Source: a virus
Lineage: Duplodnaviria > Heunggongvirae > Uroviricota > Caudoviricetes
IMG/VR virus record: IMGVR_UViG_3300024272_000021
DNA length: 28,858 nucleotides
Direction: 5' to 3' (one strand)
Position numbers and translations under genes: made by a program. Numbering within the stretch: position 1 is the first letter of the stretch; each line of letters begins with the position of its first letter. The notes under the pieces are model-generated. The model searched no databases, had not been told where the DNA came from, and saw nothing but the letters and a program-made list of their open reading frames with translations. Below are positions 13,921 to 17,019 of this stretch, piece by piece.

Positions 13921-14118
13921 TTAATATCCATTGTTATTGAGGTAGTCAACAGCGTCGTCATATGCTTCCTTGAGTGTGTCAAAACAAGGACCATCGCACA
14001 TCAATGAAAACCACATATACTTTCCCTTGTCGTTCTGAAAGAAACCAACGGTAGTCTTGTGCAGTTGTTCATTGGCTTCATCAAGAGTTATTGTTTCGCT
14101 TGCATACGGGTATTTCAT
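13921..14118 (-). CDS. Hypothetical protein
   Basis: AAAGGAG RBS; start at 14118 or 14127. Confidence 0.65.
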   Translation of the reverse strand: MKYPYASETITLDEANEQLHKTTVGFFQNDKGKYMWFSLMCDGPCFDTLKEAYDDAVDYLNNNGY

Positions 14119-14143
14119 AGTTATCATCTCCTTTCCCTTGAGC

Positions 14144-14195
14144 AAAGCCCATATTAAAACGCCCAGACTTTCGCCTAGGCGTTTTGTATAGGTTT
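14144..14195 (-). other. Conserved-base long hairpin, copy 3 (GAAA tetraloop)
   Basis: AAACCTATA-C-AAAACGCCTAGGC-GAAA-GTCTGGGCGTTTT-AA-TATGGGCTTT. Confidence 0.75.
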
Positions 14196-14320
14196 CACTT
14201 CCACATTCTCTGCGTTGCACTACGTCTTTTGTATACCTTACACTGACGGCAATGATCCAGAATCTTTTCGCTTATACCAACAACAGTTGCTCCCAGACTC
14301 ATAATTATTGCAATGCTCAT
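14195..14320 (-). CDS. Small protein (41 aa, MSIAIIMSLGATVVG...)
   Basis: Manual translation; overlaps the upstream stop codon. Confidence 0.5.
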   Translation of the reverse strand: MSIAIIMSLGATVVGISEKILDHCRQCKVYKRRSATQRMWK

Positions 14321-14928
14321 TCTTTTGCATCTCCCTTCAATTCGGCAAGCTTCTTTTCTGCTTCCATAAGCTCGGAAACCGAACGCTGATATTCGGCATC
14401 CTGCTGTTCACAAATCCGTTTACGCTGTTCGACCATTTTTTCTGCTTCTGCAATTGCCTTCTGACGTTCCTCTTCTGCTTTCTGCTCTTCTTCAAGCTCG
14501 GCATACAGTTTGTCCAGTATGCTTGCTTTTTTCAGAGCTTCAGCAAGTTCCTTTTTCAGCTCTTCGTTTTCCCTCTTAAGAGCTTCGTTTTCCTTCTCGC
14601 AGACTTCAGCTTTCTTCTGATAAGCCGCAATTTCCTTTTTGAGAGCTTCAATTTCCTCTGCAGGACCAGCGAAAAGCTCATCAAGATGTTCGAGTATCTG
14701 GGAAAGGAAACAGAATTTCTTAACTCCTTTTTGCGTTAGTGTGCAGTTCTGCTTACCGTTGCATATCAAACTTATTGTACCCGTACTTACACCATAATAT
14801 TCCGCTGCGTCCATTCCACTGACAAAAAACTTCCTATCAGTGATACAAACTACGGGCTTATGAGTTCCTCCATTATGAAGTCCATGTGCGTTAACGGTTG
14901 CCTTGTCGTGGATAGTGATTCTTGCCAT
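14317..14928 (-). CDS. NUMOD1-like HTH domain fused to a long coiled coil
   Basis: KPVVCITDRKFFVSGMDAAEYYGVSTGTISLICNGK followed by an E/K-rich heptad region. Confidence 0.7.
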   Translation of the reverse strand: MARITIHDKATVNAHGLHNGGTHKPVVCITDRKFFVSGMDAAEYYGVSTGTISLICNGKQNCTLTQKGVKKFCFLSQILEHLDELFAGPAEEIEALKKEIAAYQKKAEVCEKENEALKRENEELKKELAEALKKASILDKLYAELEEEQKAEEERQKAIAEAEKMVEQRKRICEQQDAEYQRSVSELMEAEKKLAELKGDAKE

Positions 14929-14967
14929 GATGTCATTCTCCTATTCCTGCACTTAGTGCAATTGATG

Positions 14968-15081
14968 TCAGATATTAAGTAGGTCTTCAATGATGTTCTT
15001 AATTCGTGGTATATTACAGAGGATGTTGGAAATTATGCCGAACCCCAAGATGTACATTGTGCATAGACTTAGAAAGAACAT
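14968..15081 (-). CDS. Small single-TM protein (37 aa, MFFLSLCTMYILGFG...)
   Basis: Manual translation; GGAGGT RBS. Confidence 0.55.
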   Translation of the reverse strand: MFFLSLCTMYILGFGIISNILCNIPRIKNIIEDLLNI

Positions 15082-15254
15082 GATAACACCTCCATAGTTT
15101 TATCATGAGCTGCCGCAATGACACAATGTCTACAGTCAATATGTCTACCAGTATAACAGCAGATATCACAACTGCGGTTAAAGCTGTAGACAGCGTATGA
15201 TTTTGTCCTTGCTCTTTGTTGTCGGTCAACTCCTTCTTGTTCAAATCTTGACAT
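15069..15254 (-). CDS. Small Cys-rich protein (CDIC...CRHC)
   Basis: AGGAGG RBS. Confidence 0.65.
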   Translation of the reverse strand: MSRFEQEGVDRQQRARTKSYAVYSFNRSCDICCYTGRHIDCRHCVIAAAHDKTMEVLSCSF

Positions 15255-15289
15255 AATACATTCCTCCTATTGGGTTTGTAGTATAGTTA

Positions 15290-15343
15290 ATAAACCCATA
15301 ATGGGACATCCCGATGTGGTCGAGGTGTCCTATATAGGTTTAT
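15290..15343 (-). other. Conserved-base long hairpin, copy 2
   Basis: ATAAACCTATA...TATGGGTTTAT base stem with GGACACCTCGA/TCGGGATGTCC upper stem. Confidence 0.75.
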
Positions 15344-15564
15344 ATGGTCATATTGTAGTTGTATACCACAGATGTACTCCAAATGAACTCACCGCACTCC
15401 TTGAATACTGCATCATTCAGCTCGGAGAAGTTGTTACATTCGGGCAGAACTTCAGCATGGAATACCACATCCGTCTGTGGCATAATGACATACCTTTGGA
15501 GCTTATAGTCCCAAAGGCCGATGTAGTTACGGGTCTTAAAGGCTGTGATGTTATCGAAATCCAT
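15340..15564 (-). CDS. Hypothetical protein
   Basis: GGAGGT RBS. Confidence 0.7.
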   Translation of the reverse strand: MDFDNITAFKTRNYIGLWDYKLQRYVIMPQTDVVFHAEVLPECNNFSELNDAVFKECGEFIWSTSVVYNYNMTI

Positions 15565-15592
15565 GGTGTTACCTCCTTGTTTTTAGACTTAA

Positions 15593-15649
15593 ATAAGCCC
15601 ATAATAGAACACTCGAACCATGCAGTCCAAGTGCTCTATATAGGTTTAT
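15593..15649 (-). other. Conserved-base long hairpin, copy 1
   Basis: ATAAACCTATA...TATGGGCTTAT base stem with TAGAGCACTTGGAC/GTTCGAGTGTTCTA upper stem. Confidence 0.75.
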
Positions 15650-15664
15650 TTGATGACATAGGTT

Positions 15665-15814
15665 TTACAGACTTGTGATATGTAAGATGTAACCTTGGTA
15701 CAGCACACTACGTTTGAAAGCATAGTAGAACTCATTAGCTTCTTGCATAGTGTAGCCTGCTATGAATGTAGCTACAACGTGGTCTGATAATGTGCGGACT
15801 TGTAGTTTATACAT
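15665..15814 (-). CDS. Small protein (49 aa, MYKLQVRTLSDHVVATF...)
   Basis: Manual translation; GGAGGT RBS. Confidence 0.6.
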   Translation of the reverse strand: MYKLQVRTLSDHVVATFIAGYTMQEANEFYYAFKRSVLYQGYILHITSL

Positions 15815-16106
15815 ACTGTGCCACCTCCTCAAATCTCATACCAATGTAAGCTTCTACCAGTGCAGGGTCTACCATGGCAAGCTTACAGAATGTTCTCATA
15901 GCCTGAGCAATAGACTCATGCCAACCAAAGAATTTATAGTCATGAATCATGTTGCAGAGATACTCCACGAATGCACCAAAGTCAGGGTTATCCTTGTGGA
16001 CTTCCTGAGCTGCCCAGTATGCTCCACCCATTACGGCTACAGCATTGTCATGGATATCCTCTAATGATATGATGTTGAATCTGATGATATCAGGGTCAAA
16101 TTTCAT
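15807..16106 (-). CDS. Hypothetical protein
   Basis: AAAGGAG RBS before MKFDPD (16106). Confidence 0.75.
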   Translation of the reverse strand: MKFDPDIIRFNIISLEDIHDNAVAVMGGAYWAAQEVHKDNPDFGAFVEYLCNMIHDYKFFGWHESIAQAMRTFCKLAMVDPALVEAYIGMRFEEVAQYV

Positions 16107-16213
16107 AATTAACACACTCCTTTCAAATGGTGTGGCGTAGGGTCTCAGACCATACCATAACGCCACCTATGGCATGGAATGTCTGGAGCTAATCCCAGAC
16201 TAAGCATCTCTAA

Positions 16214-16265
16214 ACCCCACTCTGCATTTACTCGGGCTTGTGACCGACCTCGGCTGCATTAGGGT
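16214..16265 (-). ncRNA. Twister self-cleaving ribozyme, type P1
   Basis: ACCC UAA UGCA GCC GAGG UCGG UCACAAGC CCGA GUAAA UGCA GAGUG GGGU gives P1 ACCC/GGGU, P2 UGCA/UGCA, P4 UCGG/CCGA, a conserved L4 and L1; predicted cleavage U16261/A16260. Confidence 0.92.
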
Positions 16266-16315
16266 AAGGGCAGAGTTATCCCCTGCCCCATTTAGTGGAC
16301 ATTAATTTTGTACTG

Positions 16316-17014
16316 TTACTTGGAGGTCTTCTGAGCCTTCTTAGCTGCAGTCTTCGCCCTGCGTTCCTTCCTCTTGGCTTCCGCTTCAGCTTCCAGTTCT
16401 TCCCAAGTCTTTGCCTTCTGGTCAGAGATAGCCCTAGCAAGCCTGTGTTCTACTTCAAGGCGGAATGCGTTGGCAGTGCTACGGGTTGCAACCCTAATGC
16501 GGTTGTCGGGGCTGTCAATAAGAGCTTTCTTCTCCTCGGTCAGCTTCTCAATTTCATTCCTCAGATTCTGAATAGTTTCGGGATTTACACCTTTGGTGTT
16601 TTCATACTCGGCGAGTTCCTTCTGTCTGTTGCGAATCTTAGACAGGCAAAGCTGAAGCTCAGGAGAATCAGAGTTAGCCCTTTTGCCTGCGTAGCCAATG
16701 ATAAGGGTTACAAGTTCCTCATTGGCACAAAGCTTGTGACCATTCACCACACCTATTGCGGCAAGGATAACACGGACAGCATTGTACACGGCAGACTTGT
16801 CCACAGAGTCGGATTCAACGGTCAGACCGTTGTTTTCACAAAGGGCATACACAGAGTATGCGGCAGAATGCAGGTCGTTCACAAGGGCAGACCACACCTT
16901 GAGATTCTCCGCTCCGAGTTGGTCAGCATTCAAGCGGATGTTTGCATAGCGGTTGTTGTTGGTCAGGCAGTCCTGAAGAGTAGAAGCGGATACGGTCATA
17001 GTATTGTTATTCAT
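16316..17014 (-). CDS. First gene of the left arm; helical protein with a basic Lys/Ala/Arg C-terminal tail
   Basis: 232-aa ORF, GGAGGT RBS, visibly higher GC and biased codon use. Confidence 0.85.
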   Translation of the reverse strand: MNNNTMTVSASTLQDCLTNNNRYANIRLNADQLGAENLKVWSALVNDLHSAAYSVYALCENNGLTVESDSVDKSAVYNAVRVILAAIGVVNGHKLCANEELVTLIIGYAGKRANSDSPELQLCLSKIRNRQKELAEYENTKGVNPETIQNLRNEIEKLTEEKKALIDSPDNRIRVATRSTANAFRLEVEHRLARAISDQKAKTWEELEAEAEAKRKERRAKTAAKKAQKTSK

Positions 17015-17019
17015 GGTTA

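Follow-up and report, generated by a model that had tools for sequence, protein, structure and literature searches.

The leftward operon of a gut-type phage contains, in the spacer after its first gene, a small RNA identified as a minimal twister self-cleaving ribozyme, and the question raised by this locus is whether that RNA would cut its own transcript and, if so, what a cut at this position would do. The source genome is an IMG/VR virus record (IMGVR_UViG_3300024272_000021) of 170,431 bp that has direct terminal repeats and is estimated to be complete; "the window" refers here to the whole 28,858-nt stretch of this genome that was analyzed. Genes to the left of position ~17,000 lie on the minus strand and genes to the right of ~18,300 on the plus strand, with sigma-70-like sites diverging between the two blocks (17816-17783 on the minus strand and 18275-18303 on the plus strand). 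These divergent promoter matches suggest that the leftward operon is an early one. The window also encodes a YonO-like RNA polymerase, YopX and initiator-like HTH genes, and a blastn search of window positions 14000-19000 against deposited phage genomes returned no match.

The first open reading frame of the leftward operon, gene A (16316-17014, minus strand; stop codon read from the sequence at 16318-16316), encodes 232 amino acids with a basic C-terminal tail, has 119 homologues in metagenomes and matches no Pfam or PHROG family. The next minus-strand open reading frame, gene B (15807-16106), encodes 99 amino acids, has an AAAGGAG ribosome-binding site and 33 homologues, and likewise matches no family; it is the first open reading frame of the predicted 3' cleavage product. 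On the minus strand, no intrinsic-terminator match was found from the sigma-70-like sites at 17816-17783 to gene B. The two genes are separated by 209 nt, and within this spacer the order along the gene strand is gene A stop codon, an 18-nt motif, a 9-bp GC-rich hairpin, the twister, a structured RNA here called module Y, and the gene B ribosome-binding site. We favor, with a probability of roughly 0.6, the reading that the RNA at 16214-16265 (minus strand) is a functional minimal type-P1 twister, that it serves as a processing site, independent of ribozyme class, in a transcript reading through the leftward operon, and that it has been selected for cleavage.

The original prediction, made from the sequence alone, placed a type-P1 twister at 16214-16265 on the gene strand. 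No match was obtained when the whole window was compared with Rfam at the default gathering scores, because the cut-off for the family (RF03160) is 67.2 bits, a curation threshold rather than a biological feature. When positions 16150-16330 were scanned with the same covariance model by E-value, a full-length match spanning all 68 model positions was obtained with 57.5 bits and an E-value of 7.6e-13, and a scan of the entire 170,431-bp genome yielded this copy as its single match (E-value 1.7e-13). The shortfall of about 10 bits results from the deletion of the optional P3 hairpin in the model alignment; the rest of the element aligns at high posterior probability, and every upper-case consensus position is matched, with the exception of the covarying T1 pair discussed below.

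The element is 52 nt long, running on the minus strand from 16265 to 16214. As read from the sequence, its three stems are each 4 bp in length: P1 (16265-16262 with 16217-16214), P2 (16258-16255 with 16226-16223) and P4 (16247-16244 with 16235-16232). Loops L4 and L1 are joined by three Watson-Crick pairs to give pseudoknot T1 (C16242-G16218, A16241-U16219 and C16240-G16220), and a GC in the internal loop pairs with a GC in L4 to give pseudoknot T2 (G16254-C16236 and C16253-G16237), so that all 17 of the 17 pairs can form. Twister ribozymes as a class are defined by essential P1, P2 and P4 stems with optional P0, P3 and P5, two pseudoknots, at least 10 conserved loop nucleotides and cleavage at a U-A step (PMC5408937). 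Those defining features of a type-P1 twister that can be read from a sequence are all present here, and the coordinates, strand and elements originally described agree with both the sequence and the RF03160 alignment. The predicted scissile step also falls where it had been placed, between U16261 and A16260 in the conserved UAA at the P1/L1 junction of the model alignment. From the cleavage chemistry described in the twister literature (PMC5408937), U16261 would be expected to end in a 2',3'-cyclic phosphate and A16260 to begin with a 5'-OH.

An inactive look-alike, either a chance resemblance to a twister or a decayed copy, would account for a score under the Rfam gathering cut-off and for an energy-only fold that is unexceptional (z -0.5). 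Such folds ignore pseudoknots, and for this reason the weak z value carries no weight. Against a look-alike stand an E-value of ~1e-13, the intactness of all conserved positions and pairs, and an orthologue in a related locus, L051, that differs from the window copy by compensatory changes; together these make it a very improbable account of the element.

The T1 pseudoknot had been singled out in the original prediction as a compensatory change. The Rfam consensus for L4 and L1 is UCCC and GAGGG, and the UCAC and GAGUG of the window copy represent a double compensatory change from it. This pair is truly covarying; what does not stand is the idea that the change is special to this copy. When the viral contigs of IMG/VR were searched for the twister core with the two T1 positions unconstrained, at least 116 stretches were obtained, and 108 distinct copies were compared among the matches listed. 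The middle T1 pair was A-U in 90 of these, U-A in 6, G-C in 5 and C-G in 5, such that it is Watson-Crick in 106 of the 108 listed copies, in all four pair types, and not Watson-Crick in two. Since A-U is the commonest viral form among the listed copies, the window copy is not peculiar.

Among the matches listed, 32 of the 75 copies parsed as type P1 lack P3, with a 6-nt join between GCC and P4. An alignment of these 32 P3-less viral copies, the window copy included, was used to measure covariation. Paired combinations fill 97.2% of the cells, both sides change at 10 of the 17 pairs, none of 500 shuffles reached the observed pairing, and controls in which the alignment was slid gave 15-48% paired. 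Stems P1, P2 and P4 all covary across the 32 copies; the T2 pairs are invariant or nearly so, and T2 therefore adds no covariation. As the search pattern fixed much of the twister core and the parser demanded P2 pairing, the covariation that is unbiased is that of P1, the outermost P4 pair and the middle T1 pair. Scoring of 11 viral loci with Rfam gave 16 other twister-P1 matches with 34.8-63.7 bits, P3 being present in some and absent in others, and every one of the 16 fell below the RF03160 gathering score. The sub-threshold score of the window copy is therefore typical of phage twisters, and since the gathering score missed this copy together with all 16 others that were scored, phage twisters are probably under-annotated.

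The GC-rich hairpin immediately upstream (16267-16289, minus strand) has 9 bp, folds with -16.7 kcal/mol (z -3.2) and ends 1 nt before P1 of the twister. Its counterpart in relatives of this locus is either identical in sequence (L248) or covarying (L051 and L249). A stable hairpin of -8 kcal/mol or better at most 6 nt before P1 was found for 54 of 74 viral twisters among the matches listed, compared with 128 of 740 random 40-mers (17%) drawn from the same loci. Of the listed viral twisters, 37 have flanking open reading frames that predominantly share their orientation and 8 have flanking frames that predominantly run the other way, with a further 24 cases ambiguous; the median spacing is 75 nt after the preceding stop codon and 52 nt before the next open reading frame. 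With these hairpin, strand and spacing statistics, the arrangement in the window is the typical one.

Several other structured RNAs were seen near viral twisters in this survey. In viral contigs unrelated to the window, pistol ribozymes scoring 60-63 bits lie ~420-480 nt from P3-less twisters (L050:2831-2897, L057:1782-1846 and L060:1133-1199), and RAGATH-16 and RAGATH-4 RNAs (L026:356-427 and 603-733) lie ~1.3-1.6 kb upstream of another twister. In seven loci (L046, L047, L056, L069, L070, L092 and L136), two same-strand twisters separated by 1-3 kb bracket a block of small genes. The genes between such paired twisters in these other viral contigs showed no common theme or family and no link to gene A.

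Upstream of the hairpin, the 18-nt motif AACARTACAAAATKARTG occupies 16300-16317 on the minus strand, overlapping the gene A stop codon. Eight further copies occur in the window (1402, 7477, 18304, 18985, 19133, 20881, 25346 and 27489), giving nine where 0.02 are expected, and the genome as a whole holds 40 copies, always co-oriented with genes, compared with none for a control pattern. The same motif is frequent in many other viral contigs of 150-170 kb (at least 109 stretches). Loci gathered through the motif as possible relatives of gene A were rejected, as they proved to be other copies of the motif.

The copy at 16300-16317 is an alternative source of ribozyme RNA and thus a counter-point to a model in which the ribozyme is made by read-through from gene A. 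Some transcripts might start at this copy, between gene A and the ribozyme, and the twister would then trim a 5' leader: transcripts of gene B would begin at or just before the motif, and cleavage would remove their first ~40 nt, including the triphosphate end and the hairpin, and leave an mRNA with a 5'-OH. Consistent with this, a Shine-Dalgarno sequence with its start codon comes immediately after six of the nine copies in the window, as is usual for the motif across the genome, strong sigma-70-like -10 boxes adjoin two of the window copies, and the order motif, hairpin, ribozyme recurs in relatives. On the other hand, no sigma-70-like promoter match lies upstream of the copy at 16300-16317, one relative (L252) has lost the motif and kept both the hairpin and a hammerhead-type element in place of the twister, and the homology between loci runs continuously through gene A, motif and hairpin to break only at the ribozyme. 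Leader trimming, which is compatible with the read-through model, is on this evidence rather unlikely as the main function of the cut, and the processing of a transcript reading through from gene A remains the preferred account.

The comparison with related loci bears most directly on what has been selected. A search for such loci with gene A alone found nothing, and one with an alignment of the window and L051 recovered only the contig of L051; in the metagenome scan with gene B, three short loci were left out of the comparison. One locus (L014) has a gene A identical to that of the window, followed by the same hairpin, the twister and the same downstream sequence. In L051, gene A is 61% identical in amino acid sequence (67.8% in nucleotides over 981 nt), and its spacer contains the motif, a covarying GC hairpin, a twister at L051:3501-3552 (59.5 bits) and module Y. 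The two twisters differ at five positions, four of which make up two compensatory pairs, an A-U to U-A exchange in P1 and a U-A to A-U exchange in the outer pair of P4; the fifth lies in a variable linker.

A different ribozyme class appears to occupy the same site in other relatives. In L248, with a gene A 81% identical in amino acid sequence, the hairpin is identical to that of the window and is followed by a hammerhead-type element (L248:1659-1715) and the next gene. In L249-L252 (gene A 72-74%), a covarying hairpin (GGGGUAGG/CCUACCCC) is followed by a second hammerhead variant and the next gene, and in L005, whose gene A is only 21% identical, the first variant lies between a longer hairpin, termed module X, and the next gene. 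The remaining loci have no ribozyme: in L004, with which L002 and L003 share the spacer, and in L006 (gene A 18-26%), the module X hairpin is followed by a small UUCG hairpin and module Y; in L015, L016, L019 and L020 (31-32%), it is followed by the next gene; and in L018 (21%), the GC hairpin and a second hairpin precede the next gene. The absence of a ribozyme from L004, L006, L015, L016, L018 and L019 means that it is not essential to the operon.

Both hammerhead variants have a complete hammerhead core (CUGANGA...GAAA, the A15.1-U16.1 pair, a NUH triplet and three stems), retaining CUGAUGA, GAAA and the A-U closing pair with GUC and GUU as their triplets, and compensatory differences separate the two in stems I, II and III. 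Each also has an unusual extra U between CUGAUGA and stem II, which is 3 bp in length. With the Rfam model Hammerhead_3 (RF00008), the element in L005 scored 27.6 bits (E-value 3.2e-4 in 186 nt), below the cut-off of 48.5 bits, and no hammerhead match at an E-value of 0.1 or better was obtained for L248, L249 or L252. The assignments were made by manual inspection and covariation rather than by model score, and because of the extra U, the 3-bp stem II and the weak or absent Rfam matches we refer to these elements as hammerhead-type candidates. A literature search found no paper on hammerheads with an additional nucleotide separating A9 from G10.1. The window's genome contains no detectable hammerhead III or II, hatchet or twister-sister, and a single pistol match (17.9 bits, E-value 0.05) was rejected as far under the cut-off. 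No hammerhead was found in three related viral records.

The boundaries of homology coincide with the ribozyme. Window and L248 are ~79% identical across gene A, motif and hairpin, and their alignment ends at window position 16268, the penultimate nucleotide of the hairpin. Between L248 and L005, gene A is unrelated and the alignment starts at the first base of the hammerhead; between L248 and L004, which has no ribozyme, it starts only at the ribosome-binding site of the next gene. The hammerhead is identical in L248 and L005 at 57 of 57 nt, compared with 83.6% overall for the aligned block that begins with it. From these breakpoints it follows that the ribozyme is a separate module, swappable between classes and more conserved than the adjacent coding sequence. 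In both classes the predicted cut falls 6-19 nt past the hairpin and near the 5' end of the ribozyme, so that the body of the ribozyme stays with the downstream RNA.

This exchange could be read in another way, with ribozyme cassettes spreading by recombination and persisting in a recombination-prone spacer as selfish or neutral passengers of no benefit to the phage. The patchy distribution among relatives (twister, hammerhead or nothing) and the recombination breakpoints on both sides of the ribozyme fit such a passenger. Compensatory changes, however, show selection on the folds of both classes, and the conservation of the hammerhead relative to the block it heads, the constant position after the hairpin, the tendency of ribozymes to share the strand of neighboring genes and the lack of any mobility function associated with the cassette all speak against a passenger, which we consider quite unlikely. 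Replacement of one class by another behind the same hairpin and at the same position argues instead that the property under selection is cleavage at this site, not the twister fold itself.

Directly 3' of the twister lies module Y (16112-16213, minus strand), a conserved structured RNA of ~100 nt that extends to the gene B ribosome-binding site. Homologues were found at L051:3575-3665, L004:2122-2222 and L006:2124-2225, with compensatory changes in two hairpins; a further pairing, CCAUA with UAUGG, covaries in L051 and would form a pseudoknot. Module Y stands beside the twister in the window and in L051, and without any ribozyme in L004 and L006. Matches of this RNA to STAXI (12.7 bits, E-value 0.99) and AgvB (E-value 5.6) were at chance level, leaving it with no Rfam family, and a pattern search for it in viral contigs gave nothing beyond the two known relatives. 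The consensus fold also predicts that its 5' flank pairs with the ribosome-binding site of gene B; this pairing was discarded, as it is broken in the window copy.

Module X (L004:2060-2105, L005:2095-2146, and in L015, L016 and L019) is a longer covarying hairpin that replaces the GC hairpin of the window. Pairing is possible between its loop and a GGGC located upstream, and a U-run follows the hairpin, which, lying directly after gene A, thus has the look of an intrinsic terminator or an attenuator. In L248, a U-run follows the hairpin of the window type.

These terminator-like hairpins with their U-tracts suggest selection to limit downstream expression at this site, which raises the possibility that the ribozyme is a down-regulating device, its 5'-OH product triggering 5'-to-3' decay and lowering the expression of gene B and the genes beyond it compared with gene A. 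The position of the ribozyme would be the same as in the processing model. Whether a 5'-OH end shields an RNA or targets it for degradation depends on the RNases of the host, and glmS with RNase J1 provides the precedent for decay. The 5' end of the 3' fragment of a twister is, however, reported to be poorly accessible and buried in the fold (PMC8782182), which argues for protection and not for decay, and down-regulation by this route is in our estimation improbable.

The account we prefer, processing of a read-through transcript, would proceed as follows. During transcription the ribozyme would fold, forming P1, P2, P4, T1 and T2, and would cut between U16261 and A16260. The upstream product would consist of a long leader and the gene A message, and its 3' terminus would be formed by the 9-bp GC hairpin (16267-16289) and a 6-nt tail with a 2',3'-cyclic phosphate. 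The RNA on the other side of the cut would begin with a 5'-OH and contain nearly the whole folded ribozyme, module Y, gene B and later genes, and the 5'-OH end of this message would be buried in the compact fold. By such a cut, the first-gene RNA may become independent of the rest of the operon in stability and dosage as transcription continues. The proposal that self-cleavage separates the leader and first-gene RNA from the downstream genes, which formed part of the original prediction, is supported at the level of sequence by the retention of a ribozyme with compensatory changes at the same site in L051, and by its replacement with a hammerhead-type candidate at that site in other relatives.

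More tentatively, the gene A spacer as a whole may be a dedicated RNA-processing station independent of ribozyme class, in which a conserved GC hairpin and an exchangeable cassette, twister and hammerhead having been swapped more than once, cap the leader and first-gene RNA, with module Y as a further partner. Three long intergenic hairpins lie farther along the same operon on the minus strand (15585-15655, 15282-15350 and 14136-14202); their folds are very strong (z -4.5 to -7), a common base sequence underlies all three, and they look like sites for double-strand-specific RNases. Taken together, the spacers of the operon look like RNA-processing sites.

In phage T7, RNase III cuts the polycistronic early transcript between genes and leaves stable mRNAs that end in hairpins. 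The same logic applies to the model proposed here, and the three long intergenic hairpins of the window operon are a further point of likeness. The window RNA differs in that it would cut itself, and the ends produced would be a 2',3'-cyclic phosphate and a 5'-OH instead of the 3'-OH and 5'-phosphate left by RNase III.

Further precedents come from phage ribozymes. With other type-P1 twisters (RF03160) the window element shares P1, P2, P4, T1, T2, the conserved L1 and L4 nucleotides, the U-A step and the placement of its termini in P1; it differs in lacking the optional P3, in having A-U in T1 where the Rfam consensus has C-G, and in scoring under the Rfam gathering cut-off. Hammerheads flank genes of prophages and have been shown in vitro to cut native polycistronic RNAs (PMC3088659), and a role in processing long phage transcripts has been suggested both for them (PMC3088659) and for twisters (PMC6765202). 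As in those prophages (PMC3088659), the window has a small self-cleaving RNA in a short spacer between co-directional phage genes, the proposed role is to cut long phage transcripts into gene-length RNAs, and in relatives of the window a hammerhead-type candidate is found at the very same site. Unlike the prophage arrangement, the window has a different fold and a single ribozyme after the first gene in place of several bracketing one, and the candidates in its relatives depart from known hammerheads in the extra U after CUGAUGA and in their weak Rfam scores.

It is already known that twisters and hammerheads occur near phage genes and that ribozyme classes share contexts (PMC5408937, PMC8782182, PMC5737381). 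In these surveys of bacterial neighborhoods, twister, hammerhead, pistol, hatchet and twister-sister ribozymes have phage-like contexts in common, as here, with the classes lying no more than a few kilobases from the same genes; at the gene A locus, by comparison, the swap takes place at one orthologous nucleotide position behind an identical upstream hairpin. This class replacement is less ordinary than shared context, and the recurrent hairpin-twister composite also deserves attention. The role of the thousands of bacterial and phage twisters and hammerheads is still called speculative (PMC5408937, PMC6765202).

In the literature searched, no description was found of either the class swap behind an identical hairpin or the recurrent hairpin-twister composite; the original twister report lay outside the scope of that search. 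Twister ribozymes were reportedly first described by Roth et al. in 2014 (reference 8 of PMC5737381), and a review of their structures and mechanism is available (PMC5408937). The gene A locus adds no new ribozyme class. It is a clean natural experiment, in which the same hairpin and site are followed by a twister, a hammerhead-type candidate or nothing, and as such it is a test bed, of moderate interest, for the hypothesis that these ribozymes function in mRNA processing.
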